Below are positions 18,995-61,959 of a stretch of 64,000 nt of DNA, one piece after another; within the stretch, counting starts at the first letter, position 1, and every line of letters starts with the position of its first letter. The notes beneath the pieces were generated by a model. It worked only from the letters and a program-made list of their open reading frames with translations. It was not told the origin of the DNA and did no database searches. Source of the DNA: an uncultured Chlamydiae bacterium (GTDB lineage Bacteria; Chlamydiota; Chlamydiia; Chlamydiales; SM23-39); assembly GCA_963730605.1 (NCBI GenBank), contig CAVSSM010000004.1, positions 17,712-81,711 on the forward strand, in the 5' to 3' direction. Made by a program: the position numbers and the translations under genes.

Positions 18995-19008
18995 CCTCCA
19001 CGACAATC

Positions 19009-20883: not shown

Positions 20884-22269
20884 GGGATTGTCTGAGGATA
20901 ACTCGTACACTTTCATAGGGAAATACCGATTCTTACCATTGGAGAAATGGTATAATTCCAGTCACCACGAAATTCATTGAAGGTGATCGCAATCTCTCGA
21001 AAATCTTCATCGCTAATCTCTCTGCCTTTTTCATACTCTCTGAAGTCGATTTGGGCTTGAATTTCTAGCCCTTTGGTCGTTTTTGTGCTACCGATTAACT
21101 GCACGATCGCCTCACGGGTGATCAGCGGCACCCCTCTCCAGTTCTGAGAAATATAGCTGAACATCTTGTGTTCGATTTTATTCCATTTACTTGTCGCTGG
21201 CGGGAAATGACATACATGAATTTCTAACCCCAATTCATTTGCCAGTTTTTGCAGTTCCCACTTCCAAAGCCTCACCCTATTGCCATTGCTGCCACCACAA
21301 TCGGCAGTTATCATCAACTTGGAGGCATTTCGATAGTCTTTTTTTCCTATTTTTTGCCACCAACTACGAATCGTATTTACAGCAAATTCAGCAGTGTCGC
21401 TCGTAATTCCAACACTGACCCAGCCCTTATTTTTGCCAATATCATATACCCCATACGGGGCCACTTTCCCCGCTTCTTTGTCGGGAAAATCATGAACATC
21501 GACCTTAACTGGCTCTCCTCGCTTGAGGTCATGGACGAATGGAGTTCAGAAAGATTTATGCGACGGATGATTTGGACTGGTTGCCTCAGAAGAACGAGTG
21601 GGTGGGCCTACGGTCTATCATCAAATTAGACTCGGTGAGATGGGCAGAGGGCAAAAGACAACAGGAAATCAAGTATTACATCAGCAGTTTACCACCCGAA
21701 GCGGAAACCCTCTCTCGTGTGATTAGAGGGCATTGGAGCATTGAGAGCAGATGTCATTGGGTATTGGATGTGGTATTCGCCGAAGATCGCAATCCGATAG
21801 TAGAAGGGCACGCTCCAGAAAATCTGAGGGCTGTGAACTTGTTAGCGGCAAAAATGTTGAAAGAGGAAAAATCGTGTAGAAAGGGCATTAGAGCCAAACG
21901 GTTTAAGGCGGCGCTTGATAATGACTACCTACACAGGGTGTTGCTGGCCGCTAACTTTTGATGCGCTCGCCCTGGTTTTTGTTGGATATCTTTGATCCCC
22001 AAATAGATTGTCGAACGACTAACTTTAGTAGCGGCATGCACCAATGTTACTCCGCCCTTTCCAAGTGCTAACGCTTCAGCGGCACACCACAAGCGACGGC
22101 TTTTTTCGTTCAATGAGTGATTGACTCGAAGATATTTTGTTCGGATTATGTTCTGAGAAACCACGCTCTCTACTCTGAGGGCAGGAAGAGTAGCATCAAT
22201 ATATATTTTTATCTATGGAAATTTGAAAAATTTCCTATGAGAGTGTACGAGTTATCTTCAGACAATCCC
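20884..22269 (-). mobile_element. ISAzo13-family IS (Rhodopirellula-type DDE transposase), disrupted
   Basis: About 40-bp terminal IRs GGGATTGTCTGA(G/A)GATAACTCGTACACT, flanking TAA duplication; N-terminal fragment LNEKSRRLWCAAEA and C-terminal fragment PYGVYDI...TADCGGSNG...PPATSKWNKIEH. Confidence 0.92.
21525..21974 (+). mobile_element. ISAs1-family transposase C-terminal fragment with right IR, nested in the ISAzo13 element
   Basis: GHGRME, YYISSL, IRGHWSIESRCHWVLDVVFAED; end TTTGATGCGCTCGCCCTG. Confidence 0.88.
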
Positions 22270-24273: not shown

Positions 24274-24303
24274 AGAAGGTTCAAAATTTCCCATGCACTA
24301 ATA

Positions 24304-24468
24304 ACCTGAGTTTTGGGTTCATTTGCCTGAGCTTCAATTTCTTTCGGCATCTTTTTGACTTTTCGCCTCGGCAAGATGCTCGTCCCGATATTGCTCTCGG
24401 CTCCAAAGCGCAAAAATATGCTCGAAATATCCTTGAATCTCATAGACAAATGAACCCAAAACTCAGGT
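24304..24468. mobile_element. 165-bp palindromic MITE (family B), copy 1
   Basis: IR ACCTGAGTTTTGGGTTCATTTG...CAAATGAACCCAAAACTCAGGT; flanks TAATA/TACTA; near-identical inverted copy at 61015-61179. Confidence 0.9.
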
Positions 24469-24487
24469 TACTAAGCGCGGCTGTAAA

Positions 24488-35103: not shown

Positions 35104-35130
35104 AAATCTAGAGGGAATATAGGGAGTTTG

Positions 35131-35303
35131 GAGGGTGTCTACAAAGGGAGGGAACGCCCGAGTTTTTGGATTATTTTGGCCGCTTTTCGACTTCAAAGCT
35201 TGGGGGGCCATATACTGCTGTCGATATTGCCCCCAAGTCTTGAATCGAAAATCGGCTCAAAAGAACCGAAAAATCGACAGAACCTCACTTTGTAGACACC
35301 CTC
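35131..35303. mobile_element. 173-bp palindromic element (family D)
   Basis: IR GAGGGTGTCTACAAAG...CTTTGTAGACACCCTC; core shared with 56438-56609. Confidence 0.85.
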
Positions 35304-35332
35304 TTAGATCAAGATGAAGGGAAGGACTTCCC

Positions 35333-35629
35333 ATGCAAAAAATCTTTTTCCTAATCCTTGTGCTCCTTGCCATGAGTCCAAAGCTTTGCGCCGAGGAAAG
35401 CGAGACCGCAGCGGCTCTTGCGGCCGAACCGCCCCAGCAGGAAACAGAGACCTCCGAGGCCTCCTCGTCAGAAGCGACGAATCCGCAAACAGGCGCAGCG
35501 TCAGCGTCCTCGGCGGAAGCGGGCCAGAAGGCCGTTTGGCAAAATTGGGTGTTCGCTGGCAGCGCGCTTGCGACCGTGACCGCGGGAGTCGTGATCATTT
35601 CGCTCAATTCAGGCACTACCTCGCACTAG
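35333..35629 (+). CDS. Small exported/membrane protein with acidic linker, same architecture
   Basis: MQKIFFLILVLLAM signal; WQNWVFAGSALATVTAGVVIISL; ends GTTSH. Confidence 0.75.
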   Translation: MQKIFFLILVLLAMSPKLCAEESETAAALAAEPPQQETETSEASSSEATNPQTGAASASSAEAGQKAVWQNWVFAGSALATVTAGVVIISLNSGTTSH

Positions 35630-36069
35630 TCGCAGCATGGGTTTTCAGCGGCTGCATGGCAGCTAGCCCTTGGAAGCTCGACTCGATTTCAACAGGGGTA
35701 GAGAGCTTCGATTCCGCGCGGTTGACTTATTCGACAGCCGACTCCCCTCTCCGTTTTGAGATCATGGCCGCCCAAGATGGGATCGAGACATTTTTAAGTC
35801 TGACGAGGCACAAATTCACTCCCAAAGAGGACGTAAAAGTGGCAATCTCGATCGGCGGCGAAAAATCTGTAGAGACAATCCCTTTCTTAGAGGGGAAAAT
35901 GCGGCTCCGCTTCCCCCTGGAGACGACAGAGAGGATTCTTAGGGCCTTGCAAGAAGGGCAGGAAGTTGCTATCATGGTCGATGGTTTTGAAGGGCGTCTC
36001 TCTCCTGAACGATTTTTGAGCCAATATGAAAATTTATTAGAGCGCAGCCCTTTCAAAGGACTCTTTTGA
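35590..36069 (+). CDS. Hypothetical lipoprotein, start uncertain, overlapping the upstream gene
   Basis: Lipobox-like LALVAAWVFSGC followed by about 135 aa of protein-like sequence. Confidence 0.5.
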   Translation, partial: RDHFAQFRHYLALVAAWVFSGCMAASPWKLDSISTGVESFDSARLTYSTADSPLRFEIMAAQDGIETFLSLTRHKFTPKEDVKVAISIGGEKSVETIPFLEGKMRLRFPLETTERILRALQEGQEVAIMVDGFEGRLSPERFLSQYENLLERSPFKGLF

Positions 36070-36098
36070 CGTTTAAACCCTAATAGTGGGATAGGCTC

Positions 36099-37046
36099 AT
36101 GAACCAACTCGACCAATTGAAGAAATTCACCACAGTTGTCGCTGACACGGGAGATTTCGAGACTCTCAAACACTACCATCCCACCGACTCGACCACTAAC
36201 CCCTCCCTGATCTTTGCCGCCAGCCAGCAGTCCCAGTATAAACACTTGGTCGACGATGCGGTTCGGTATGGCAAATCCAAGGGCGACAAGAGCCTGGGCC
36301 ATGCGATCGATAAAGTCTTTGTGAATTTCGGGCTTGAGATCCTGAAACTGATTCCTGGGCGGGTCTCCACGGAAGTGGACGCCCGCCTCTCCTTCGATGT
36401 CGAAGGGAGTATGACCAAGGCGCATCATCTGATCTCTCTTTACGAATCGGCCGGCGTTGACCGAAAACGGGTTCTTATTAAGCTTGCTTCTACCTGGGAA
36501 GGCGTCATCGCTGCCCGCCAGCTAGAAAAGGAGGGCATCCATTGCAATATGACCCTCATGTTCAGCCTTCCGCAAGCGATCGCTTGCGCAGAGGCCAAAG
36601 CGACCCTAATCTCCCCCTTCGTCGGCCGCATTCTCGACTGGCATAAGAAAAACGAGGGCGTCGCTTCTTATCCTCCTGCGGAAGACCCTGGGGTCAAATC
36701 GGTGGCCAAGATCTACAACTATTACAAAAAATTCGGCTATAAGACGCAGATCATGGGAGCCTCGTTCCGCAATAAGGATGAAATTTTGGAGCTCGCAGGC
36801 TGCGATCTTCTGACGATCTCCCCTCCCCTTCTTGAAGAGCTTAAGACCTCTTCGGTCCCTGTCTCCCGCAAGCTCGATCCCGAGAAAGCGAAAGCCAACT
36901 CGATCGAGAAGATCTCTGTCGACGAGAAGGCCTTCCGCTACCTTCTTAACGAAGATGCGATGGCAACTGAAAAGCTCTCCGAGGGGATTCGCAATTTCGC
37001 GAAGGATATCATCAAGCTCGAAGCCATCCTTAAAAAATTGCTATAG
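36099..37046 (+). CDS. tal: Transaldolase
   Basis: [49 protein letters not shown]. Confidence 0.97.
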
Positions 37047-37118
37047 AGTAGTAAGAAGGCGGGATATTAAGCAGGTATCTATATCGAGCAAGCGGGACAA
37101 AAATTGGTGAGAGCGCTC

Positions 37119-38258
37119 CTAGAGAAGTATTCTTAAATGTGCCACATGCGCCACGAATGCACGACCGGCAGAGGTAATGCTTTCTGAGTCTGAAAGGGTG
37201 AGGCCTGTGAGTTTTGTTAAACCCGCTAGATGCTCCAACCCGGCATCGGTGATTTCGCACCCTGCCAGGTTGAGGGTTGCGAGATTTATTAATTTTGCCA
37301 GAGGCTGCAGCCCGAGGTCGGTGATCCGATGGCACCCTGCCAGGTTGAGGCTTGCGAGATTTGTTAATTTTGCCAGGGGCTGCAGCCCGAGGTCGGTGAT
37401 CTGATCGCACTCTGCCAGGTTGAGACTTGTGAGATTTGTTAAATTTGCCAGGAGCTGCAGTCCGAGGTAGGTGATCTGACGGCACGCCGTCAGGTTGAGG
37501 TTTGTGAGAGCTGTTAAATTTGCCAGAAGCTGCAGCCCGAGGTCGGTGACCTGATCGCACCATGCCAGGTTGAGGGTTGCGAGATTTGTTAATTTTGCCA
37601 GGGGCTGCAGCCCGAGGTCGGTGAGAGCATAACAGGCTGATAGGTTGAGGCTTGTGAGAGCTGTTAAATTTGCTAGGGGCTGCAGGTCGGTGATCCGACG
37701 GCACCCTGCCAGGTTGAGGCTTGTGAGAGCTGTTAAATTTGCCAGGGGCTGGAGGTCGGTGATCCGATGGCACCCTGTCAAGTTGAGGGTTGCGAGATTT
37801 GTTAATTTTGCCAGATGCCGCAGCCCGGCGTTGGTGAAAGCAGGACAGTTTGCTGCATTAATTTCAGTAATGCCAGGAAAATGTGCAATAATATTTCCCA
37901 GTTCCTTATTAGTAACGTTGCTATTCGATAAATTAATTTTGAACAGCACTGAACTTGAAAAATTTGGATTTAGTTCTCTAATCTCTTCCAAGGTAATCGG
38001 TTCTCCGTCTGCGACTTTGTCTTCAAAACGGCCAATGGCTGCCCCAAAAGGGTCTGAAGCATGATATTGCGTCCGATTCGCCAAAGCGCAAGCTGCATTG
38101 TCTCTACGGTTTAAAAATTTCTGGATATTCGTCGATATGAGTTGTGGCATTTGAGATAGGTAATTAGAATCTTCTGACTCTGTGGCATGACGTCCATCGG
38201 CTTCTCTTTCCGAATTGTAGCCTGGTGTCCCAACTCCGCTCACTGTCATATTTGCCAT
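37119..38258 (-). CDS. F-box-like plus LRR effector-like protein, paralog of 19009-20802
   Basis: LSQMPQLISTNIQKFLNRRDNAA followed by about 9 LRRs (LTNLATLNLAGCxxITDLGLQPL). Confidence 0.85.
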   Translation of the reverse strand: MANMTVSGVGTPGYNSEREADGRHATESEDSNYLSQMPQLISTNIQKFLNRRDNAACALANRTQYHASDPFGAAIGRFEDKVADGEPITLEEIRELNPNFSSSVLFKINLSNSNVTNKELGNIIAHFPGITEINAANCPAFTNAGLRHLAKLTNLATLNLTGCHRITDLQPLANLTALTSLNLAGCRRITDLQPLANLTALTSLNLSACYALTDLGLQPLAKLTNLATLNLAWCDQVTDLGLQLLANLTALTNLNLTACRQITYLGLQLLANLTNLTSLNLAECDQITDLGLQPLAKLTNLASLNLAGCHRITDLGLQPLAKLINLATLNLAGCEITDAGLEHLAGLTKLTGLTLSDSESITSAGRAFVAHVAHLRILL

Positions 38259-38300
38259 CTGGTTATGGGGATAATCCCCTAAGCCTATTTTGGTAATTCC

Positions 38301-38332
38301 GCAAAAAAGATCAGGGGGTTGATCTTTTTTGT
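38301..38332. terminator. Bidirectional intrinsic terminator downstream of rpoC
   Basis: CAAAAAAGATCA-GGGGGT-TGATCTTTTTTG. Confidence 0.65.
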
Positions 38333-38401
38333 GAGAAGCAGACGCCCTTTGCCTGAGGTGCGGAGCGAAAGCTCCGCCTCCTATGCCCGTGTCCAGAGCT
38401 T

Positions 38402-42612
<4,211 letters not shown>

Positions 42613-42629
42613 CTTCAACCTTTCTTTTA

Positions 42630-46440
<3,811 letters not shown>

Positions 46441-46594
46441 GGGTACTCGCTCCTATACGCAGACTGATTCAAAAAATAAGAGTAGAAGCCGTCCTTAAAC
46501 AGCCTCCACTCGGCAGGAAACTTAAAATAACATAGCACTTAGACTCGACTTTGTACAATAAAAAATGAGTGCAGTCGAATTTGACATGAAAAGT

Positions 46595-46987
46595 TTACAA
46601 CCCTTTCAGGGTAACTTTGGCGCCAGCAGCAGTGATTTTCTTTTTAATTTCCTCCGCTTCCGCTTTAGGGCAGCTAGCTTTCAAATCTTTTGGAGCCCCT
46701 TCAACAAGATCTTTGGCTTCTTTCAAGCCAAGGCCTGTCACTTCGCGAACCGCTTTAATGACCGAGATTTTCTTATCGTCTGTAACTGGGCCTTCTAAAA
46801 TAACTTTGAAGTCCGTCGACTCGGAAGCGGCCGCTTCTGCGGGAGCCGCCCCAGCTGGGGCTGCGGCAGCCATTGCTACAGCCGCTTTTACGCCCCATTT
46901 CGCTTCCAGTTTTTCTTTCAGCTTAGCCATGTCCAGCACAGAAAGCTGGCTTAGCTTTTCGACGAGTTCATCTAATTGTTGACTCAT
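46595..46987 (-). CDS. rplL: 50S ribosomal protein L7/L12
   Basis: [24 protein letters not shown]. Confidence 0.97.
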
Positions 46988-47004
46988 GGTGATTTTCTCC
47001 TATT

Positions 47005-47513
47005 TCATTCACTTTTTTGGCTAATAATCGAAAGCGGCTCGGCCATCACTGCCTCCAGGACTGCAAGCATTTGGGACATCGGCGATGTGAAAAGCCCCAG
47101 AAGCATAGCGCTCATTTCGTCGATTCCAGGCAGCTTGGATAGCACTTCCAAATCGGCTCCAGGAACGAATTTCCCTTCAATTTGTCCTCCCAACACCTCG
47201 ATCATCTGTTCGTGCTCTTCCGAGAATTTATAGAGCAGTTTTGCCGAAGGCATTGCATCGGGCTGTTTCACGAAAACAACTCCGATATGGCCTTTTAACA
47301 AGCCGGCATCGATGGCGATTCCCAATTGGTCAGCCGCTTTCATAAAAACTTGTTTTCGGACAACCTCGAGTAACCCGCCCGATTTGGCGAGCTGATCGCG
47401 GAGTTGCCAAGCGTGTTGGGAGCGAGTTTTTCATACCGAGTAATGATCATGGCGGTCGAGCCATTGATCTTCTCTTTAATCTCGTTCAATAACAGTTGTT
47501 TTTCCTTTCTCAT
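47005..47513 (-). CDS. rplJ: 50S ribosomal protein L10 (apparent frameshift)
   Basis: MRKEKQLLLNEIKEKI start at 47513; LEVVRKQVFMKAA, LSKLPG; between rplA and rplL. Confidence 0.88.
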
Positions 47514-47522
47514 CTTGCCCCC

Positions 47523-48222
47523 TTAACCCAAATCCAGCGACTGCAGATCGATTTTCAACCCTGGCCCCATCGTCGTAGAAATATAGAGCGAGCGGAGGAA
47601 GTTGCCTTTTGCGCTAGCAGGCCTTACGCGGGCGATGGCCTGCAGCAGAGACCTCAGATTGTCGACAAGCTGCGGCGCACTAAAAGACATTTTCCCAACC
47701 GCATTGTTGACGTTTCCGGTTTTATCGACTTTGAATTCGATTTTTCCCGCTTTGACCTCTTTGACCGCTTTCGCAACATCTGTCGTTACAGTCCCGGCTT
47801 TGGGAGTAGGCATCAGGCCTCTCGGACCTAGCACTTTACCAAGCTTGCCCAGTTCGCGCATCATGTCCGGAGTCGAGATCAACGCAGAAAAATCGGTCCA
47901 TCCTCCTTTGATTTTCTCCAGGAGATCGTCCGCGCCGACAAAATCGGCTCCTGCATCGAGAGCTTCTTTGGCTTTATCCCCTTTGGCGATGACGACGAGC
48001 GATGACTTTTTGTCCTGTGCCGTGAGGGAGAGATACTGTGCCACGCACTTGTTGATCCGACTTTTTCGGATCGATGCCGATTTTCAAAGAGGTATTGACC
48101 GATTGATCAAATTTTACGGAAGGGCATTTTTTTAAAATATCGACAGCTTCTTCCAACTTATAAATCTTATTTGGATCGACCATCTCGTCGATTTTTTTCA
48201 TTCGTTTCGATCGATGAGCCAT
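47523..48222 (-). CDS. rplA: 50S ribosomal protein L1 (apparent frameshift)
   Basis: [43 protein letters not shown]. Confidence 0.95.
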
Positions 48223-48223
48223 C

Positions 48224-48652
48224 TTACTCCTCCACAATATCTACGCCCATGGAGCGCGCTGTTCCCATGACCATCATCTCTGCGGCTTCCACAGAAACGA
48301 TCCGCATGTCTTCGGCTTTCGATTGGGCAATCTTCTTTACTTGTGCACGGGTCATCTTGCCGACTTTATCGCGGTTCGGCACCTTGGATCCTGACTCGAT
48401 GCCGAGTTCTTTCAGGATCATCCGTGACACGGGCGGCTGCTTCGTAATAAAGCTGAATGATTTATCCGTATAAACGCTGATAATGACAGGGAGAACGTCC
48501 CCTGCTTTATCTTGGGTCTTTGCGTTGAATTCCTTGCAAAAGGCCATGATATTGATGCCAGCCGAACCCAAGGCAGGGCCAATGGGAGGGGCGGGATTCG
48601 CCTTTCCTGCGGGAATTTGCAGTTTGATCTGCTTGACGAGTTTTTTTGCCAT
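48224..48652 (-). CDS. rplK: 50S ribosomal protein L11
   Basis: [27 protein letters not shown]. Confidence 0.98.
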
Positions 48653-48748
48653 TTCAATCCTCTCATGAGTTCAAACGAAGGATCTCTCCTTCTCCTCATC
48701 GTTATTTCCCCCCAAAGACGATGCGTCTTTGGGGGACCCCTTACATAT

Positions 48749-49291
48749 CTAACCTGTATTTTCTGACGTAGCTTCCACTTGCCAAAATTCCAGGTCGTCG
48801 ACGCGGGTATCGCGCCCGAAAATCGATACCATGACGCTCAATCGTCCTTTTTCGTGATTCACTTCGGTCACCGTTCCAATGAAATTGATAAAAACTCCAT
48901 CGGTAATCTTGACCTTGTCTCCCACATCGACTTTGTGCTTTTGCACAATTCCTTTCTTCCGGTCTTCCAACTCTTTCATGATGTCGGCCACTTCTTTCTC
49001 CGTTAAAGGAGTTGGATTTGCGCCGCCCAACAAGTCGATGACGCCGTCTGTATCTTTTACATAGGCCCAAGCCTCTTCAGTCAGATTCATTTTCACGAGG
49101 AGATAGCCTGGCCACATCCGCTTTTCGCTGATCTTCTGCTGGCCCCGTTTCACTTCCGATACATTTTCGGTCGGGATCAAGATCTCGGAAATATCGTCAT
49201 CGAATCCTTTCGCATGGCGGAATTCCTCGAGAGATTTCTTCACCTTCTTCTCTTGGCTCGACATGACTTGAACGACATACCACTTATGCAT
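48749..49291 (-). CDS. nusG: Transcription termination/antitermination factor NusG
   Basis: KWYVVQV, WPGYLLVKM, KOW motif, VSIFGRDT. Confidence 0.97.
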   Translation of the reverse strand: MHKWYVVQVMSSQEKKVKKSLEEFRHAKGFDDDISEILIPTENVSEVKRGQQKISEKRMWPGYLLVKMNLTEEAWAYVKDTDGVIDLLGGANPTPLTEKEVADIMKELEDRKKGIVQKHKVDVGDKVKITDGVFINFIGTVTEVNHEKGRLSVMVSIFGRDTRVDDLEFWQVEATSENTG

Positions 49292-49340
49292 ACTCCCCTA
49301 TCCTTTTTTACCCAAAGTCGATGCGATTTTGGAGGACCCT

Positions 49341-49562
49341 TCAACCAAATATTGCTTGAAACAGCGTGTTTGCGGCATGCAAGGCTCCGCTAATTCCTAA
49401 GTCTACCAAATAAATAGCAAAACCAAACACGAAAGTCGCGATGATGACGGCCTTCGTACAAAAGATCAACTCTTCCTTCGAGGTCCATGTCACTTTTTTC
49501 AATTCATTTTGAACTTCTCGAAAGTACGAAGCCTTTTTCTTTTCCGTCGTAATCGTCGTCAT
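49341..49562 (-). CDS. secE: Preprotein translocase subunit SecE
   Basis: ELKKVTWTSKEEL plus one TM; between tRNA-Trp and nusG. Confidence 0.93.
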   Translation of the reverse strand: MTTITTEKKKASYFREVQNELKKVTWTSKEELIFCTKAVIIATFVFGFAIYLVDLGISGALHAANTLFQAIFG

Positions 49563-49623
49563 ACCTATCCTGCCGGTCTAACTATTTTTCCCCAAAGTCG
49601 ATGCGACTTTAGGGACCCCTTCT

Positions 49624-49696
49624 CGAGTGCGGAGGGATTCGAACCCCCGACCCGCGACTTTGGAGATCGCTGCTCTACCAGCTGAGCTACACACCC
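49624..49696 (-). tRNA. tRNA-Trp(CCA)
   Basis: Cloverleaf GGGTGTG...GCGAT-CTCCAAA-GTCGC...TTCGAAT...CGCACTC. Confidence 0.95.
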
Positions 49697-49758
49697 CAAT
49701 TTTCCCGAAAGACGATGCGACTTTGGGGGCCCCTTAGGATACACCCTCGCTTGCATCC

Positions 49759-50945
49759 CTATTTCAAGATTTTAGAAATGGTTCCAGCTCCAATGGTTCT
49801 ACCGCCTTCGCGGATCGCAAAACGCATCCCTTCTTCCATCGCAATCGGATGGATCAGTTCAGCTGTCAATTCAACGTTATCGCCAGGCATAACCATCTCG
49901 GTTCCTGCCGGCAGCTCAACGGTTCCCGTTACGTCTGTCGTGCGGAAATAAAACTGCGGACGATATCCTGTAAAGAACGGCTTATGGCGGCCGCCTTCAT
50001 CTTTAGTCAGAACGTAAACAGTTCCTTTGAATTTTGTATGCGGAGTGCAAGTTCCCGGAGCAGCGAGAACCATTCCGCGCTCTACATCGTTCTTTCTCAA
50101 TACTGCGCAGAAGAACTCCCACGTTTTCGCCAGCGAGCGCTTCATCTAGAATTTTGTTGAACATTTCAAGACCAGTCGCAACGGTGTCTCGGGTTTCGCG
50201 GATGCCGACAAGTTGGATCTTATCGTTGACCTTGATTTTGCCTCTTTCGACACGGCCTGTAACCACAGTTCCGCGGCCAGAGATCGAGAACACATCCTCA
50301 ATCGGCATCAAGAAAGGCTTGTCCACTTCACGAACCGGCGTTGGGATTTTTTCGTCAACCGTTTCCATCAATTTGACAATCGACTTGAACATAGTGCTGG
50401 ATCCCCTTCGAGAGCTTTGAGAGCCGAGCCACGGATGATCGGGACATTCTTATAGCCTTTGGATCGAGAAGTTCGGTCAATTCCATTTCAACGAGTTCGA
50501 CGAGCTCTTCATCCCCTTTGCCGATCATATCCATCTTGTTCAGGAATACGACGATCGCAGGAACACCGACTTGACGTGCGAGCAGGATGTGCTCTTTCGT
50601 CTGCGGCATCGGACCGTCGGTGGCGGCAACAACGAGGATCGCTCCGTCCATCTGCGCCGCGCCGGTAATCATGTTCTTGACATAGTCGGCGTGGCCAGGG
50701 CAGTCTACGTGCGCATAGTGCCGCTTGTCTGTCTCATATTCTACGTGGGACGCGTTGATCGTAATCCCCCGTGCTTTTTCTTCCGGCGAATTGTCGATCG
50801 AAGCGTAGTCGCGAAATTTCGCTTGCCCTTTTTCAGCCAACACTTTAGTGATGGCAGCGGTCAGCGTTGTTTTACCGTGGTCGACGTGGCCGATCGTTCC
50901 AATGTTTACGTGGGGTTTCGTTCTCTGATAAGCTTCTTTTGCCAT
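49759..50945 (-). CDS. tuf: Elongation factor Tu (apparent frameshifts)
   Basis: [47 protein letters not shown] in three frames. Confidence 0.96.
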
Positions 50946-50972
50946 TTTCTTAGATCCTCCGTTCTTTATTTT

Positions 50973-51044
50973 TGCCCAAGATAGGAATTGAACCTACGAC
51001 CACTTGCTTACCATGCAAGTGCTCTACCACTGAGCTACCTGGGC
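50973..51044 (-). tRNA. tRNA-Thr(GGT)
   Basis: GCCCAGG...CTTGC-ATGGTAA-GCAAG...TTCAATT...CTTGGGC-A. Confidence 0.95.
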
Positions 51045-51120
51045 GGGCGCTTTCACGATTCCTAAAAGCATGCTAGATTAAGGCTACTTGGGACAATAAA
51101 ATCAATCCTTATTCAACCAA

Positions 51121-51339
51121 CTATTTTTGACGGTATACAATCCGCGCTTTCGTCAAATCATAAGGCGACATCTCGACCGTTACGGCATCACCTGCGTAGA
51201 CTCGGATATTCCGCATCCGCATCTTCCCGCTCAGGTGAGCGATGACTCGCATCCCGTTCTCAAGGACTACACTAAAATTCATATTGGGCAAAAGCTCTTC
51301 AACTTTACCCTCCATCTTGATCGTTTCTTCTTTCGACAT
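51121..51339 (-). CDS. infA: Translation initiation factor IF-1
   Basis: [39 protein letters not shown]. Confidence 0.97.
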
Positions 51340-51399
51340 AGAATATTCGGCTCGGAAATGCTTACAATCAAACAGGATTTCGGCTATGTTGTCAAACAC

Positions 51400-51650
51400 T
51401 ATTAACGGGGGTAGTAAAAAGATGACCATATGCGCCAGCGAGCCGCCGCCAAATCGAAGAGGGCAAAGCCCCCGTTCTGAACGAGGAGCACCATTGCCAG
51501 AGGCAAGGGCGACGAGAAAGATCGATTTGGCTGCGGAATCGAGAAAAAGGTTCGAGGAACCTTTTTCTCGCGGAGCAGATGAGCGAAGCGAATCGGCCCG
51601 AAGGGAGGCGCAGCAAGCAGATTGTCAACTTTTTACCACCCTTGTTAATA
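51400..51650. mobile_element. About 250-bp palindromic element (family F) between divergent infA and sufE
   Basis: Imperfect IR TATTAACGGGGGTAGTAAAAAG...CTTTTTACCACCCTTGTTAATA; internal hairpin CGAGAAAAAGGTTC-GAG-GAACCTTTTTCTCG. Confidence 0.7.
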
Positions 51651-51657
51651 AATGCTT

Positions 51658-52095
51658 ATGAGCGGTACTTTTCAAGAAAAAGCTAATGCGGTTAAAAAAT
51701 TCTTCCCTCAATTTCTATCGGCGGAAGACCGCTACAAGGCGCTGATCGACCTCGGGCGCAGCTTACCGACATTGCCACCTGCTCTCAAGGTCCCTGAAAA
51801 TCTCGTTTCCGGCTGCCAAAGCAACCTGTACCTCGCCGCTCGGTTTATCGATGGTTTGGTCTTTTTCGAAGCGGGCTCGGACGCCCTGATCTCCGCTGGG
51901 CTCGCAGCCCTTCTCATCAATGTATATAGCGGCGAGCCTCCCGAGACGATCCTCAAACAGCCCCCCGACTACGTCCGCGACCTCGGCATCGCCGCTTCCC
52001 TTTCCGCCAATCGCTCTAACGGACTTGCCCACATTCATTTGCGCATGAAGAAAGAAGCTCTAAAATTTTTAGTGACCTTAAGAGGGTGTTGCTGA
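51658..52095 (+). CDS. sufE: SufE-family Fe-S assembly protein
   Basis: RYKALIDLG, NLVSGCQSNLYL, SDALISAGL, LSANRSNGL. Confidence 0.92.
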   Translation: MSGTFQEKANAVKKFFPQFLSAEDRYKALIDLGRSLPTLPPALKVPENLVSGCQSNLYLAARFIDGLVFFEAGSDALISAGLAALLINVYSGEPPETILKQPPDYVRDLGIAASLSANRSNGLAHIHLRMKKEALKFLVTLRGCC

Positions 52096-52130
52096 TTTAA
52101 GCTTCTATCGATAATTCAGCAACACCCTCT
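52081..52130. repeat. 50-bp hairpin with family-D-like ends supplying the sufE stop codon
   Basis: AGAGGGTGTTGCTGA...TCAGCAACACCCTCT. Confidence 0.65.
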
Positions 52131-52195
52131 AAATATTTCTTGATTAGGATCATACTCCCCATTCGTGTATTCTTTAAGAGCAAAAAAGGAAACCT

Positions 52196-53047
52196 ATGTC
52201 GCTTGCAGTAACCTCTGGATCCGCGATTACCTCCAGACCCACGACGCCTCAGTTAAGCCGTTATGTAACTGAACTTCCTCAAAAAATTGCGCATGAGCGG
52301 AGCCGGAAAGCGGCTCTTTACAGCCTGGCTTCTAAAGTCTGCCTCGTCGCGTTCATTGCGATCGTGGCAGTCTTCCTTGCCATCTCGATCGGCCTTCTTT
52401 CGCCCCTCTCTCCGGCCCTCACAATCCCCTTAATCTTCAGCGCTCTCCCCCTTCTAGAGGGCGGTCTCTCGCTGGATTGCTCGGAAGCGGCGAGGCAAGC
52501 GATTGACACAGCCCATGAGTTTGCCCGCATTCGGCATTGGACAAGCCCGCAAATCAAGGCATTTTTCGAAAAACATCATCTGTCCTTAGAGAAGCTTCCG
52601 ATGGATTTGCTGCGGAAGGCGAACCCCAAGGAACCTCTAAGAGCCCTTTTGCCTGCGATCGCATCCTACAATTATTTATGCCATAAAGCGGAAAAACACT
52701 TTAAAGAACACGAGAATAATCTATATAACAGGACGGAAAATCCAATTCTGCGCCACCACGGGCGCCTGGGAGGCTGGAAGAAATTAGAATGCGAAGCGAT
52801 CCCCGCGGCGCTCCAAGCAGCCCTTGTTTTACAGACGATCTCCCAACCTACGCTTCAACTGCAGCTGGCCGATCTTGGCGCCTGCACCCCGAAAGCATTC
52901 GATCAGCGGCGATTCGACCAGCTCCTGGAGGGGTCGGACGCTTATTTTGTGTTCAAGGATCAAGCCCGCGCGCCACTCACTTTCACTGCCCTGCAAGAAC
53001 TTGTCTCAAAGCAGAACTACGATGGGCTGAGGGTCAAATTGTTCTAG
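52196..53047 (+). CDS. Inc-like hypothetical protein (bilobed hydrophobic segment)
   Basis: Ser/Thr/Pro-rich N-terminus; VCLVAFIAIVAVFLAISIGLL-SPLSP-ALTIPLIFSALPLL. Confidence 0.6.
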   Translation: MSLAVTSGSAITSRPTTPQLSRYVTELPQKIAHERSRKAALYSLASKVCLVAFIAIVAVFLAISIGLLSPLSPALTIPLIFSALPLLEGGLSLDCSEAARQAIDTAHEFARIRHWTSPQIKAFFEKHHLSLEKLPMDLLRKANPKEPLRALLPAIASYNYLCHKAEKHFKEHENNLYNRTENPILRHHGRLGGWKKLECEAIPAALQAALVLQTISQPTLQLQLADLGACTPKAFDQRRFDQLLEGSDAYFVFKDQARAPLTFTALQELVSKQNYDGLRVKLF

Positions 53048-53050
53048 AGC

Positions 53051-54241
53051 TTAGAGAAGGCAGCGGATCTCATCCTGCTCCCCGCCGGTCACCTCGACTC
53101 GGCCATCTTGATGGACGTATACGTCGGATTCAAGGCGGATGCCGAATTCCTTGGATAGATAGATTCCAGGTTCTACCGAAAAACAAGTCCCGGGCAAAAT
53201 GGGCCGATCGTCGTGCATTTCCAGGTTGTCTAAAGAAGCGCCGCTTCCGTGCAATTGGATCTCGATGCTATGACCGGTCCTGTGAAGAAAATTATCCCCG
53301 AAACCCGCTATCTGAATGACTTTCCTTACCGCGTCGTCCACTTCAAATCCTAAGACCTTTTTTTTCTCGGCAAAGCGGCGCTTCACGAGAGCAATGCCGG
53401 CTTTCTGAGCGGCAGCGCAGGCATCGAATACTTGTTTTTGCCGCGCGGTCGGGCGCTCGCTTGCGACTGCAACTCTCGTAATATCCCCAAACACTGCCCC
53501 TTCCCCCTTTTCTTTCGCCCATAAATCGATCAGGAGAAAATCCCCCTTTTTAAGAAGGCTCGGGTCCAGGCTTGCAGTTTCGAAATGGGGATCGGCGCTA
53601 TGGGCGTTGACTGCAACAATGGGAGGGTGATCCGTGATCAAATGAAGCCGTTCAAAGTCCTTCATGATCCGCTGCTGGATCTGGTATTCGTTGACCGGTT
53701 TATCTTCTCGTAAGCGCTCTCCGATCCACTGCCACGTCTCTTTCACGATTTTATCGAGGGCCGATGCGGCGCGGATGTGGCTCTCCCCTTGCTTGGCATC
53801 GATCACAGCGGTGAAATGAGGCAAAAACGGCCCCGAACTGACAATCTCCGGCCCAAAGGAGCGGACGAGGTCGACCGTCCCTCCATCTACATAGGAAACA
53901 TAAGGGTTTGCGTTGAGGGGGGAATATTCCATCGCCACCCGCCGCGAGCCCGATATGGCAGCCTCGAGTTCTGTGCGGAGCGACTGCCAAGAGAGAAAAA
54001 TTCTCTTTTCTCCCGGCCATGCGTTTAGGATATGGGGTTCGATCGCATGGACGATCTTGACGGGGGTACCCATGGCAGGAATCCAATAAAAAAAACGGCG
54101 CGATACCATCTCATGCTCTGGAATTTCGAGGAATTGGTGCGCGAGATGATTCCTCTTATGAAAATCATAGAGCAGCCAACCGTCAGCCCCCATTTCTTTG
54201 AGATATTTTCTTGCCTCGAGGATTTTTTTTTCTTTCGTCAT
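53051..54241 (-). CDS. M24 family Xaa-Pro peptidase
   Basis: SADPH, LLIDLWAK, GDITR, FLHRTGHSI, FSVEPGIY, GIRLESD; ATG at 54241. Confidence 0.93.
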   Translation of the reverse strand: MTKEKKILEARKYLKEMGADGWLLYDFHKRNHLAHQFLEIPEHEMVSRRFFYWIPAMGTPVKIVHAIEPHILNAWPGEKRIFLSWQSLRTELEAAISGSRRVAMEYSPLNANPYVSYVDGGTVDLVRSFGPEIVSSGPFLPHFTAVIDAKQGESHIRAASALDKIVKETWQWIGERLREDKPVNEYQIQQRIMKDFERLHLITDHPPIVAVNAHSADPHFETASLDPSLLKKGDFLLIDLWAKEKGEGAVFGDITRVAVASERPTARQKQVFDACAAAQKAGIALVKRRFAEKKKVLGFEVDDAVRKVIQIAGFGDNFLHRTGHSIEIQLHGSGASLDNLEMHDDRPILPGTCFSVEPGIYLSKEFGIRLESDVYVHQDGRVEVTGGEQDEIRCLL

Positions 54242-55968
54242 CTGTTGAGGCATTGGATGAGCGCGGCCGCTGCAGCGACGCGCAAAATAGGAAAAGGTTC
54301 TCGGAAAATGCCAACGAGAAAGCTGAACGAATGGGCAGTGCCCATCCGCCCAAGCGCTTCTAAAATATGGAGTTTCCGTTCGTGATTCGCGCCGGCATAA
54401 GCCCCTTGCAAATCGCTCAGGACCGATTCGTCGCGGCCCATCATCGCCAATACAAGGCATGCTTGCAACCGGACATTCGGGTCGTTATCCTTCAAACATT
54501 CACGGACGATTGCGAGGGCTGATTCGTCCCCCTCTTGAAGGAGAGTGGCCGCGGCGACGCCGCTGATCCCCCAGCTCCTTTTCTGCAAGAAACTCTTGAG
54601 GGCATCGCTTGCTCTCGGATCTTCGACAATGGCTAGGAGCGATACCAGATTCAGCCGGGTCATTTGATCGATCGATTCGGGGTAGTTGGGAATGTGGTCG
54701 ACGTAGCGGACTTGGCTCGGCGCCAGGACTTGAAAGAGCGGGTTTGGGCGGGTATCCCACATCCACATCCGCTTTTCGCTTTGCAAAAATTCATAAATCG
54801 AGTCGCAGCATAGGCCCGTTTCGACCCTCTGCCCTAAAAGCCCTAGGGCAAGATTGGCTTTTACATAAGGGTCGCTTCCGCCCTTGATCGTTTTCAGGGC
54901 GAGATCGGTTCCTCTTTTTCCCGTAGCTGTCAGAGCAGCGGCAGCGAGGCGCCGGTTCTCCGGGAGAGAATCGGCCAACCATTTTTCTAAAGCCGGCGCT
55001 CCGAAAGAGGGGTCCACGAGCATGGCGGCCCATCCGGCAGTGATCGCCACCGCAGGGTGCGGATCCGAGAGGAGGTTCTTCAGCGCTTCTTTTGCCTCGC
55101 CCGCAGGCGTTTCATCCCGATAAACAAGTCCGAATGCGTTCAATGCCGCGATCCGGACGTCGGGATGAGTGTCTTGGATGAGCTTTAGAATTTCAAGCTT
55201 TGCATCCCGCAGTTTGAAATGCGCTGCGATCGAACAGGCCAAGTGGCGGATTCCCGCTCGATTGCTTGCGGCGAGGGCCTGGAATTCGGGAAGAGAAATG
55301 TCTTCGTAAATATTCACGAGCGCTTCGATCGCGATCTGACGCTCTTCGTAAGTCGCCCTTTCCGACTGGACGATCGCCTGGAGTTTTGGAGCTAGCGACT
55401 TCATTTTCAAGGCTCCGATCGCTTTGATCACTTCGAGGCGGACGACCCAGACCCGCTCTTCCTCCATCAACCTCATGATCTCGTCTTTCAACGGCGCATC
55501 CTGGTAAGAGGAGGACATCTGGACCGCAATGGATCGGATGATCGCGTTGGAATCGCGCATCATCTTTTGCAAAACCGCTACAGCGCGGACATCATGAGTC
55601 AAATAGGCGCCGATCAATGCCGCCAGCCTGACGCCGTTCTGAGTCGAGTCTAACCCTTTCTTCAAAATCCCCCATGAAAGCTCTTCCAGCAAATGTCGCT
55701 CTTGGATGAGGTCGGGATATTTGGCAGAGAGGCGGTGCCAGGCGTCGAGGGCTTCGTCTTCTCGCTTTCCCGCAGCAAAGGCTTCGACGAGGACTGAACC
55801 CACGAGCCGCGAATCAGGGCATTGCTCCGAAAGGCTCAAGGCCTCTTGGAGAGCCGAAGCCGGGTCGTCGATCAAGAGATGGGCCTGAACTCTCCTGACC
55901 CCTTCTTCTTCCTTGCTAACGGAAGCAGAACCCAGGAGCAAAATGGCGAAAATAGACAGACATCTCAT
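54238..55968 (-). CDS. HEAT-repeat protein
   Basis: Repeats such as DTHPDVRIAALNAFG and DNDPNVRLQACLVL; N-terminal signal. Confidence 0.85.
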   Translation of the reverse strand: MRCLSIFAILLLGSASVSKEEEGVRRVQAHLLIDDPASALQEALSLSEQCPDSRLVGSVLVEAFAAGKREDEALDAWHRLSAKYPDLIQERHLLEELSWGILKKGLDSTQNGVRLAALIGAYLTHDVRAVAVLQKMMRDSNAIIRSIAVQMSSSYQDAPLKDEIMRLMEEERVWVVRLEVIKAIGALKMKSLAPKLQAIVQSERATYEERQIAIEALVNIYEDISLPEFQALAASNRAGIRHLACSIAAHFKLRDAKLEILKLIQDTHPDVRIAALNAFGLVYRDETPAGEAKEALKNLLSDPHPAVAITAGWAAMLVDPSFGAPALEKWLADSLPENRRLAAAALTATGKRGTDLALKTIKGGSDPYVKANLALGLLGQRVETGLCCDSIYEFLQSEKRMWMWDTRPNPLFQVLAPSQVRYVDHIPNYPESIDQMTRLNLVSLLAIVEDPRASDALKSFLQKRSWGISGVAAATLLQEGDESALAIVRECLKDNDPNVRLQACLVLAMMGRDESVLSDLQGAYAGANHERKLHILEALGRMGTAHSFSFLVGIFREPFPILRVAAAAALIQCLNR

Positions 55969-56093
55969 CACTTCCTTCTTATGCCAGATGCCCGCCATAT
56001 AATGGAAGAATGGGAATACCACCTCACAGTAGGACGCAATAAAATAGTAAAGACTAGACCACTATTGCACCGCCGAAATTTTCAGGAATATGA

Positions 56094-56429
56094 CTACCCC
56101 ATAGGGCCGAGGATGCGGCCGCCGATGAGGTGGAAATGAAGGTGGAAAATCGTTTGGCCGGCATCGGGGCCGTTATTGGTGAGCAGCCGATAGCCATCGG
56201 CAACCCCCTTTTCGATCGCAATCTTCTGAGCCACTTCGATGATTTCACCGATCAAAGGGAGATCGTGCGGCTCTATCCGCTGCAAACTCGGAATTTCTTT
56301 CTTTGGCATGATGAGGATATGGACCCGGGCGATCGGATGGATATCCTCGATCGCCAAAATCCGTTCGTTCTCAAACACTTTTTTGCAAGGGATCTTCCCT
56401 TGGATGATTTTGCCAAAAACGGTCGTCAT
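56094..56429 (-). CDS. hinT: HIT-family nucleotide-binding protein
   Basis: TVFGKII, AGQTIFHLHFHLIGG. Confidence 0.93.
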   Translation of the reverse strand: MTTVFGKIIQGKIPCKKVFENERILAIEDIHPIARVHILIMPKKEIPSLQRIEPHDLPLIGEIIEVAQKIAIEKGVADGYRLLTNNGPDAGQTIFHLHFHLIGGRILGPMG

Positions 56430-56437
56430 AGTCATAA

Positions 56438-56609
56438 GAACCTATCCCAATAAAAAGTTTCAGTCGATTTTTCGGTTCTTTTGAGCCGATTTTCGATTCA
56501 AATTTCGGGGGGCAATATCGACATCATGTATATTACCCCCCGAATTTGAAGTCGAAAATCGGCCAAAATAATCCAAAAACTCGACGAAAAATTTTACTTG
56601 GATAGGTTC
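56438..56609. mobile_element. 172-bp palindromic element (family H) sharing its core with family D
   Basis: IR GAACCTATCC...GGATAGGTTC; 56463-56583 is a reverse-complement homolog of 35159-35278. Confidence 0.85.
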
Positions 56610-56616
56610 AAGGCAC

Positions 56617-60758: not shown

Positions 60759-61015
60759 TGAAGGGTATCCTACGTGACATGATTTTTTTTAGAAAGAAAA
60801 AACCAGAAGCTCCCCCTCCCAAACCGGCCAAACTAGCCAAACCGGATATGGCTGCGGCGGCACCCGTTAAGCCAGCCAAAAAACATGAACCTCCTCCAGT
60901 CGCGCCTGAACCCAAAAGCCTTAAACCTCTCCAAGAGATCGCCCACACCCGCGTTTTGACAGCGGAAGGCTGGCGCAGGTCCATGGTAATGAAAGTCCAA
61001 AAAAAAATTAAATAA
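60758..61015 (+). CDS. Small Lys/Pro-rich hypothetical protein
   Basis: TGATG coupling to the upstream gene; C-terminal VLTAEGWRR; stop abuts MITE B. Confidence 0.55.
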   Translation: MKGILRDMIFFRKKKPEAPPPKPAKLAKPDMAAAAPVKPAKKHEPPPVAPEPKSLKPLQEIAHTRVLTAEGWRRSMVMKVQKKIK

Positions 61016-61179
61016 CCTGAGTTTTGGGTTCATTTGTCTGTGAGATTCAAGGATATTTCGAGCATATTTTTGCGCTTTGGAGCCGAGAGCAATATCGGGA
61101 CGAGCATCTTGCCGAGGCGAAAAGTCAAAAAGATGCCGAAACAAATTGAAGCTCAGGCAAATGAACCCAAAACTCAGGT
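61015..61179. mobile_element. 165-bp palindromic MITE (family B), copy 2, inverted
   Basis: Same IR as 24304-24468; perfect AAATA duplication at 61010-61014 and 61180-61184. Confidence 0.92.
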
Positions 61180-61185
61180 AAATAG

Positions 61186-61959
61186 TCACTTTTCCTTTTT
61201 TTTCTTTTCCTGCCCGATGATTTCTTCTGCAAGAGCGCGGTAATCTTTCGAGCCCTTGCAAGACGGATCATAAATGGTGACAGGCTTCAAGTGGAGCGGC
61301 GCTTCCGCCAAGCGGATGTTTTCCCGGATCACCGTATTGCAGACCTGTCCGGCGAACCGCTGGTTCAGTTGCTTTAGCACTTCTTGAGAGTGTTTCGTCC
61401 GTAAATCGACCCTGCACGCTAAAATGCCGGCAATTGCAAGATTTTTGTTCAAACGCTGTTTGACCAAATTGATCGTTTTGAGAAGTTGGACAAGTCCATG
61501 AAGAGCCATCACATGGGCCTCGACGGGAATCAGAACCTCGTTCGCCATTGTCAGCGCATTGAGCGAAAGGATGCCAAGCGCAGGGGGGCAATCGATCAAG
61601 AGGTAATTCCAAGGCCTGCCGGGCAATTTTTCCACCTTTGTTTTGAGGATGATCTCGGAGGCGACTTCATTCGCGAGCGTCTTTTCGACGCCGGCCAACA
61701 TGGGCGAGGAAGCCACCATGTGAAGCGATTCGATGCAGGTCTTTTCAATCGCATCCTCCAATTTCCCATCTTCCGTCAACGCTTCGTAGAGCCACTTGCC
61801 CCGGTCTTTGAGCCCATACCAAAGGGATGCCGAACCTTGCGGATCGAGATCGATGAGCAGCACCTTTTTGCCCGCCTCAGCCAAGGCCGCCGCCAAGTTG
61901 ACGGCCGTCGTTGTTTTGCCCGAGCCGCCTTTCTGGTTTACAATCGCAATCGTCCGCAT
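61186..61959 (-). CDS. parA: ParA/Soj family ATPase
   Basis: NQKGGSGKTT, LIDLDPQG, LIDCPP, IRENIRLAEAP. Confidence 0.9.
   Translation of the reverse strand: MRTIAIVNQKGGSGKTTTAVNLAAALAEAGKKVLLIDLDPQGSASLWYGLKDRGKWLYEALTEDGKLEDAIEKTCIESLHMVASSPMLAGVEKTLANEVASEIILKTKVEKLPGRPWNYLLIDCPPALGILSLNALTMANEVLIPVEAHVMALHGLVQLLKTINLVKQRLNKNLAIAGILACRVDLRTKHSQEVLKQLNQRFAGQVCNTVIRENIRLAEAPLHLKPVTIYDPSCKGSKDYRALAEEIIGQEKKKKEK

Follow-up and report, generated by a model that had tools for sequence, protein, structure and literature searches.

One palindromic core under the ends of several insertion sequence lineages in a 170-bp MITE of environmental chlamydiae

The window analysed here, a stretch of 64,000 nucleotides from an uncultured chlamydial bacterium, carries nearly the same palindromic sequence at two loci between ends that differ, which raises the question of how one core came to lie under different ends and what keeps it conserved. 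An earlier note on this DNA had pointed out the high similarity between 35159–35278 and the reverse complement of 56463–56583, and had considered either a modular system that exchanges its ends to ride on different insertion sequence (IS) families or a functional non-coding RNA. The two segments indeed align; the shared core, which is 88% identical between the copies, reaches about 6 bases farther on the left and about 4 farther on the right (35153–35282 and 56459–56588), and in both cases forms the interior of a complete MITE (element A, 35131–35303; element B, 56438–56609 on the minus strand; Table 1). Each element folds into a single long hairpin (z -10.2 and -14.4, respectively), and the differences in the inner stem preserve pairing, as had been proposed. 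The loop-proximal motif CGATATTGC, present in both cores (35222 and 56512), recurs at 24386 and 61089 in the other 170-bp hairpin family of the window, which is presumably the "family B" where the note had seen it.

Table 1. Parts of the two MITE copies in the window
Feature	Position	Strand	Remarks
Element A, left target duplication	35128..35130	+	TTG, one mismatch to the right copy (TTA)
Element A, left terminal repeat and junction	35131..35152	+	class I (A type)
Element A, shared core (copy A)	35153..35282	+	imperfect palindrome
Element A, right terminal repeat	35283..35303	+	class I
Element A, right target duplication	35304..35306	+	TTA
Element B, left target duplication	56610..56611	-	TT
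Element B, left terminal repeat and junction	56589..56609	-	class II (B type)
Element B, shared core (copy B)	56459..56588	-	
Element B, right terminal repeat	56438..56458	-	class II
Element B, right target duplication	56436..56437	-	TT, adjoins the ATG of a HIT-family gene

At both loci of the window, a ~170-bp type II MITE of environmental chlamydiae has inserted. The elements have terminal inverted repeats and target duplications, are short, multicopy, and without a transposase, resemble IS only in their repeats, and occur as filled and empty sites. A contig of a related strain lacks 175 bases at the site of element A, and another contig lacks the 174 bases of element B and its duplication (one contig each); the empty site of element B is also present in a second genome (G003). 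The possibility that only these two copies exist is contradicted by 44 loci matching the core in this genome (assembly 83% complete), including 31 full copies, of which 28 have A ends, two have B ends, and one has a third type of end. An exact TNA duplication flanks 25 of the 29 A-type entries. When 149 sampled genomes of the phylum were searched with a covariance model, the family turned up in 36. Its 241 profile hits yielded 186 full-length elements with flanks, 10 of them broken; genome-level statistics are based on 155 of the 186, the remainder being broken or without genome label, and L215–L245 and some titled loci were left out to avoid double counting. All but two elements are 166–177 bp long. 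The insertions are scattered and vary between strains; element B immediately adjoins the start codon of the HIT-family gene (56094–56435). Coding constraint was rejected, because element length varies base by base and none of the six frames of copy B is free of stops. A-type copies with their duplication (177 bp) have an open frame on each strand. No viral contig contained an exact match to a 20-base motif of the core.

The ends fall into four classes, each with its own duplication rule: TNA in class I, any 2 bp in class II, TA in class III, and 4 bp in class IV. Among the 186 extracted elements, the exact duplication was found in 78 of 115 members of class I, 31 of 43 of class II (TA in none), and 13 of 18 of class III, with classes assigned by pattern and a few elements misassigned (class IV was counted in the class I bin). 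At 15–18 of 18 bases, the repeats agree with the termini of IS from three IS5 lineages and with those of an IS1182-like element. Class I repeats agree with L348, L353, and L364 at 18, 17, and 16 of 18 bases, respectively, and also bound a decayed IS5 element in G017; class II repeats reach 17/18 with the IS5 element L298, and class III repeats match the ISL2-type elements L331 and L324 at 18/18. The class IV repeats match L248, an IS1182-like element, at 15/18 bases in the same genome (G063), where a 4-bp duplication flanks eight of nine IS copies and three of five MITE copies; the rule fails in all four class IV entries from elsewhere, two of which (L398 and L186) share identical flanks. The subgroup labels (IS1031, IS427, ISL2) are our assumption from domain content and duplication. 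Both the IS5 family (NF033580-type, HTH_Tnp_4/DDE_Tnp_4-type) and the IS1182-like elements share with the MITE the terminal 17–19 bases and the duplication rules but not the interior. The core was absent from all 16 IS tested, and by sequence comparison the interior of the MITE is not derived from the matching IS.

The assertion that the ends of the two window copies are unrelated has to be qualified. Their sequences (GAGGGTGTCTACAAAG and GAACCTATCC) agree at only 7 of 21 positions without gaps, but each agrees with IS5 elements of the NF033580 type, and the transposases of these share ~25–33% identity. Clearly distant ends (ISL2-type and IS1182-like) occur in genomes other than this one; in tblastn, the ISL2-type and L248 transposases had no hit to those of classes I and II.

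The correspondence between ends and resident transposases, which the earlier note had proposed to examine, was seen for class IV in G063, whereas this genome (assembly 83% complete) yielded neither an intact IS with A ends nor an exact partner IS. Its ISAzo13 follows the same TNA rule as the A type, but the ISAzo13 loci tested match MITE ends at only 8–13 of 18 bases, and ISAzo13 was rejected as the partner of A, although it might cross-mobilise the element. In the IS5 of this genome, the ends resemble the B type apart from an additional G, and the duplication is TA. A resident element in G061 follows the class II duplication rule; G062 harbours at least 10 MITE copies and none of the five transposase families searched. 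Among nine genomes picked for their matching IS (in addition to G063), eight are without a core element; the exception, G082, has core elements mostly with class III ends, though its IS belongs to class II. A stand-alone DUF4096 gene, which seemed to co-occur with the core, was rejected as a domesticated helper because it is missing from G002, G062, and G063, all rich in copies.

When cores and ends were tabulated, as the note had also suggested, the core did not track end type. In this genome, the A core, one B-ended core, and one C-ended core are 97–98% alike, whereas the B core of the window reaches only 88%. Among 67 genome-by-end-type representatives, cores from the same genome were closer to each other than in any of 500 label shuffles; cores with the same end type were not (108/500). 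Nearest cores were matched by end type rather than genome in 15 of 36 representatives, and the core tree, of poor resolution with support for 12 of 63 branches, shows a slight clustering by end class (17 changes versus 20.8 when shuffled; 2/200 as low). By these comparisons, the sequence of a core goes with its genome rather than with its type of end. The existence of hybrid-ended copies (L182 and L064), together with a loop that is forward in 76, reversed in 18, and unassigned in two of 96 elements, points to recombination as the swapping route, and it is likely that cores were exchanged between end types in this way. Two copies in G063 (L444 and the second copy of L436) carry one junction type on both arms. 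Of the modular system envisaged in the earlier note, the combination of one core with ends of different transposase lineages stands; a dedicated swapping machine fits the data less well than recombination between copies.

The structural alignment, which comprises 82 rows (80 of 97 representatives and the two window copies), bears out the suspected covariation: 33 of 55 pairs changed on both sides, a number not reached in any of 500 shuffles. The same signal would be expected from DNA copying between the arms. Conservation is strongest outside the pairs, with 90–93% in unpaired outer-core columns versus 55–69% in terminal-repeat columns, and unpaired core positions also exceed the paired stems. 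The folded core has a 4x3 internal loop, and the inner span measures 52–58 bases in 94 of 96 elements. An apparent compensation between loop and stem length (rho -0.51) was set aside, since the boundary rule itself could create the correlation.

A/T tracts, which contain 17 of the 30 invariant columns, are phased with a peak at 10.6 bp; in copy A, where the apex is at 35210–35227, the centres of six tracts (approximately 35165, 35175, 35186, 35250, 35261, and 35271) share one phase within one base. In the inner stem, AAA has been replaced by TTT in 12 of 82 rows, and the tract is retained in 71. In a post hoc test based on one ancestral sequence, the AA/TT amplitude at 10.5 bp was 0.145 versus 0.042 in shuffles, and the end-to-end ratio in a wedge model was 0.66 versus 0.86. 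The curvature of the two window copies also exceeded that of palindromic controls (p 0.02 and 0.005); of 18 further hairpin families in the genome, only one passed this comparison. That most invariant columns lie in phased A/T tracts suggests that the core may be a bent-DNA spacer. Element B contains no IHF consensus site, even with one mismatch allowed; an HU/IHF-family gene was present in all five genomes checked and is split in two pieces in this one. The unpaired T (35257 in copy A) is retained in 94 of 96 elements, which curvature does not explain.

Taken at the level of sequence, the family is a ~170-bp type II MITE in which ~18-bp repeats matching different IS (IS5-type and one IS1182-like) flank a conserved palindromic core; it is probably moved in trans by their transposases, and its cores are probably exchanged between end types by recombination. 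A visiting DDE transposase would bind the repeats that match its own and spread that type of end. Through homologous recombination or gene conversion acting on the 120-bp cores, the most common core of a genome would then enter copies with other ends, with crossovers yielding hybrid ends. Copying between the arms of one element would account for most "compensatory" changes and could match hybrid ends again. Finally, selection may keep the core because it assists transposition in cis, most likely in the form of a duplex with intrinsic curvature, whose helically phased A/T tracts would help two ends only 170 bp apart to join; this last step is the weakest, and we advance it tentatively. On a broader reading, the core would be a portable enhancer of transposition that works independently of the transposase (as pre-bent DNA and perhaps also as a folded strand), with which the element outlives any one IS by adopting new ends through recombination and arm-to-arm repair; we give this somewhat less than an even chance.

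By analogy with attC sites, which integrases recognise, and with REP hairpins, which are read by HUH enzymes, the core might act as a cruciform arm or a folded single strand: a protein would recognise its unpaired T and internal loop and thereby promote end capture or transposition. We regard this as rather unlikely. It agrees with the covariation of the stems and the simultaneous retention of asymmetric features (besides the unpaired T, the left ATTATTTT in 87, the right AAAAGAA in 91, and a junction bulge in 86 of the 96 elements), but relative to these features the loop is found either way round, there is no strand bias with respect to local GC skew (13/23), the target duplications obey DDE rules, and the Y1 transposase domain, present in four of five genomes, is absent from G062 and represented only by a weak fragment in this genome. 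It is unlikely, too, that a single ancestral MITE underwent drift of its ends by point mutation and arm-to-arm copying under resident IS, without end capture, and that the core is conserved only by recent horizontal spread and gene conversion. The nearly fixed arm length (21–23 bases in all classes), the near-continuum of class I ends, and the relatedness of the transposases matching classes I and II would be in line with such a history, which leaves unaccounted for the 17–18 of 18 matches to IS of other genomes (including lineages without detectable protein similarity), the near-identity of cores under ends as different as those of A and B, and the higher conservation of unpaired core positions.

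Selection might also act on RNA if co-transcribed hairpins are put out of the way by folding or cleaved by RNase III, making insertions tolerable or even regulatory, as in Correia elements, whose transcripts RNase III cleaves according to the available text of PMC10969869. The very stable fold, the location of many copies at most 300 bp from the end of a gene, and the slightly better folding of the top strand in 69 of 97 representatives speak for this analogy. We nevertheless consider it improbable, since G-U does not significantly exceed A-C in the repeats (32/23), the outer core (29/37), or the inner stem (20/22), read-through orientations are balanced (11 versus 12), and the invariant sequence and its phasing would be left unexplained. 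The absence of a G-U excess and of an orientation bias also fails to support the functional non-coding RNA of the earlier note, despite the strong covariation and one sigma70-like site in copy A (35187–35216; 0.3 expected by chance), whose -10-like hexamer is lost in many copies. Neither element matches an Rfam family, inversion of the loop would alter the RNA, and the insertions are scattered and strain-variable, which makes a function of this kind very improbable. Among sequencing runs, no RNA run was listed as carrying the element, a result without bearing on expression.

The usual view takes MITEs for decayed derivatives of a single IS and defines them by their ends. Like other type II prokaryotic MITEs (PMC10969869, in the text available), the chlamydial family resembles IS only in its repeats, duplicates its target, lacks a transposase, and forms a stable stem-loop in many copies, but it has one core under the ends of four transposase lineages. 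The accessible parts of the literature state that cores of MITEs from different bacteria have no similarity (PMC3184786) and mention only the reverse case, the same repeats with different interiors (PMC11602168). QMITE1 of Coxiella burnetii is likewise a long palindromic MITE with repeats of 21–28 nt, duplications of 2–4 bp, variable ends, and a conserved core; it differs in its size (~400 bp) and consensus IHF site, and in the portion of PMC5896051 available the variation of its ends is not linked to different IS. YPAL/RU-2 of Yersinia and the Rickettsia palindromic elements (RPEs) are also long imperfect hairpins (105–168 bp) of recent mobility, a likeness of description, and YPAL has duplications of 3–26 bp (PMC2229807, as far as its text is available). 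The cycling of heteromorphs and homomorphs in maize Mutator, where recombination between divergent repeats leads to hybrid and then matched ends while the interior is kept, is comparable, but according to the accessible text of PMC10401008, these eukaryotic elements are kilobases long, encode transposases in their interior, and have repeats of one transposase family. The HUH-mobilised REP/REPIN units differ from the chlamydial MITE, which is bounded by IS repeats with DDE-type duplications. REP/REPIN units are bounded by REP tags, and in RPE families an inner segment is common to members with different ends. Our literature search, mostly of openly accessible papers, retrieved no description of this chlamydial family, of a bacterial MITE core common to several transposase lineages, or of phased A-tracts in a bacterial MITE.

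For RNA discovery, the family is a caution that strong covariation is possible in a DNA palindrome without RNA function. It also allows the question of why bacterial MITEs form hairpins of ~170 bp to be tested directly. In this family, inheritance and constraint lie with the middle, and the ends change according to the transposase, which would explain its persistence across the phylum while helper IS come and go. If the core is a portable enhancer, it would be the unit of descent and the ends exchangeable keys of the next IS5- or IS1182-type invader, and many long-hairpin repeats of bacteria may be built in this way.

The two hairpin elements of the window, A and B, are real, mobile, and modular. 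The similarity described in the earlier note between positions 35159-35278 and 56463-56583, the latter read as its reverse complement, is borne out at 88% identity; the hairpins are longer than the aligned stretches, have folding z-scores of -10.2 (A) and -14.4 (B), and share 7 of 21 terminal bases. A collection of copies from G000, the genome of the window (2.2 Mb, 83% complete), recovers the shared core at 44 loci and thus more often than twice; the 31 full-length copies carry A ends (28), B ends (2), or a third end, C (1).

Coordinates of features in the window and on contigs C1, C2, and C9 of G000
Feature	Location	Strand	Remarks
Element A	window 35131-35303		flanked on both sides by ORFs without NCBIfam hit
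Element B	window 56438-56609	minus	directly 5' of the start codon of a HIT-family gene
Second hairpin family (170 bp)	window 24300-24472, 61013-61186		
ISAzo13 element	window 20884-22269		TAA duplication; split by ISAs1 fragment
Two ORFs	window 18994-20610, 37119-38258		75-base (25-residue) tandem repeats; leucine-rich-repeat-like by period
Small palindromes	window 48698-49736		CCCCAAAG..CGATGCG..TTTGGGG type; recurring near tRNA
A element within a B-type terminal repeat	C2:192771-192846		inserted at TAA
Resident IS, 1137 bp	C9:129508-130644		presumably IS982-like
Hairpin copy	C9:155366-155528		interior related to second family; 17-base ends same as IS5 of G061
HU/IHF-family gene	C1:145227-145494		split over two frames
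Stand-alone DUF4096 gene	L112:1483-1839 (C1); also L108-L118		~118 residues, single-copy, without DDE frame

Exact TNA duplications are present in 25 of the 29 A-type entries of G000. One contig of a soil metagenome lacks B, skipping 174 bases (the element plus 2), and a second contig from the same metagenome lacks A, skipping 175 bases, one short of the 176 expected; each observation concerns a single contig from a related strain, matched at relaxed likeness. Element B is also missing from its position 5' of the HIT gene in the relative G003. Both A and B are mobile insertions. At 56436-56458, the right arm in one contig of run X2 is B-type but of another sequence, and the 9 bases after it agree with the start of the HIT gene; this is a weak hint that the arm at this site differs between strains.

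The core occurs in 20 of 60 other genomes, including 16 of 36 from the same family, and of 149 genomes sampled across the phylum, 36 gave a hit with the covariance model called for in the earlier note. The model detected no copy in any of the 26 members of family f35, whose listed genomes are about 1 Mb in size. A pattern scan of a species-level genome collection yielded at least 111 stretches; the 80 titled stretches among the matches listed are labelled as Chlamydiota, Verrucomicrobia, or unclassified metagenome bins.

The arms of 186 full-length elements, compared with the termini of autonomous IS that occur in the same order, comprise 21-23 bases and sort into classes, each with its own duplication: exact TNA in class I, that of A (78/115), exact 2 bp in class II, that of B (31/43, TA in none), and TA in class III (13/18). 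Classes I-IV match the ends of such IS at 15-18 of 18 bases. Class I ends agree with NF033580 elements that have a TWA duplication (18, 17, and 16 of 18), class II ends with another, 878-bp NF033580 element with a 2-bp duplication (17/18), and class III ends with HTH_Tnp_4/DDE_Tnp_4 elements with a TA duplication (18/18). Class IV, found in G063, where all four classes are present, matches 15/18 bases of a resident 1575-bp element, whose 401-residue transposase scores best with IS1182, albeit below the cut-off. This IS has a 4-bp duplication in 8/9 copies; the class IV MITEs have it in 3/5 copies in G063 and in 0/4 entries from other genomes. The transposases of classes I and II are ~25-33% identical over their aligned parts, and those of classes III and IV had no match to either. 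In G017, A ends also flank a decayed 672-bp IS5 (L375:168-839) that retains a short transposase-like start together with a passenger ORF of 180 codons, which indicates that A ends can carry cargo.

The class IV end in G063 has a candidate resident partner. A search of G000, at 83% completeness, found no exact partner IS for its MITE ends. None of five transposase families searched was found in G062, which has core copies, and the core element is absent from 8 of 9 genomes picked for a matching IS, which together argues against a simple IS-MITE partnership; the helper IS would be transient. The core was absent from all 16 IS inspected.

Core and ends are decoupled. When core and end combinations are tabulated for G000, the A core shares 97-98% identity with those of one B-ended and one C-ended copy, and the core of B in the window is 88-89% identical to all of these. 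In a set of 67 representatives, with a single one for each combination of genome and end type, cores from the same genome are nearer than chance (0.136 versus 0.198; 0/500 shuffles), whereas sharing an end type brings no such closeness (0.192; 108/500). The core tree has low resolution and shows slight clustering by class; it requires 17 class changes, with a minimum of 2. Apparent recombination products are visible in L182, with a class I left and a class II right end, in L064, with two class I ends unlike each other, and in two copies of G063 with an identical junction on both arms. Junction bases go with the end class, which places the exchange points within the core. The end swapping proposed in the earlier note holds in substance. 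The B-type end also flanks at least three other cores in G000, so that sharing occurs in both directions, and the nested insertion on C2 could be a seed of end exchange.

Further hairpin MITE families, more than 15 in number and 150-260 bp long, are present in G000. The second family of the window has ends matching the resident 1137-bp IS, contains CGATATTGC, and reaches 39 bits against the core model. The small palindromes also occur elsewhere in G000, nested within larger hairpin elements. The DUF4096 gene is conserved across genera of the family and looks like a domesticated IS5 DNA-binding domain.

The A/B element shows every feature tested of a type II MITE in the sense of PMC10969869. 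QMITE1 is likewise described as combining variable ends with a conserved core (PMC5896051), and the Mutator elements of maize cycle via hybrid-ended forms (PMC10401008). The literature covered, outside which key primary papers lie, gave no account of a single bacterial core common to several transposase lineages.

The covariation anticipated in the earlier note is present: over 82 rows, both partners vary in 33 of 55 pairs, with a score reached by no shuffle in a control that ignores relatedness. This covariation does not point to RNA. The functional ncRNA suggested as an alternative is not borne out, since mismatches show no excess of G-U over A-C in any segment, copies show no orientation bias to read-through transcription (11 versus 12) or local GC skew (13/23), and A and B had no match in Rfam. 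Watson-Crick pairs are exchanged for Watson-Crick pairs without wobble intermediates, and in 18 of 96 representatives the apical loop is flipped with respect to the outer core, which fits arm-to-arm copying at the DNA level as the probable source of the paired changes.

Neutral decay of the core fits poorly, because unpaired outer-core columns are better conserved (90-93%) than the terminal repeats (55-69%). A/T tracts make up 17 of the 30 invariant columns, and AAA is exchanged for TTT in the variable inner stem, which usually keeps a tract. AA/TT steps peak at 10.6 bp with an amplitude more than threefold that of shuffled sequences, the six tracts of copy A keep one phase over the two arms, and a wedge model predicts a bend (0.66 versus 0.86); this predicted curvature, noticed after inspection of the alignment, amounts to a single evolutionary observation. 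Against palindromic controls, the two copies of the window reach p values of 0.02 and 0.005, and only 1 of 18 other hairpin families of G000 passed. The persistence length of DNA is not far from 170 bp, and the ends of several transposons are brought together by bends that IHF induces; the IHF consensus is absent from B. The split of the HU/IHF-family gene on C1 reflects either a frameshift or an assembly error. Recognition of the core as a folded strand is a live rival. An unpaired T is retained in 94 of 96 elements, which bending does not explain. The phased tracts, the predicted bend, the length, and the lack of an IHF consensus tentatively favor a core that may act as a pre-bent spacer, which would be useful to any DDE transposase.
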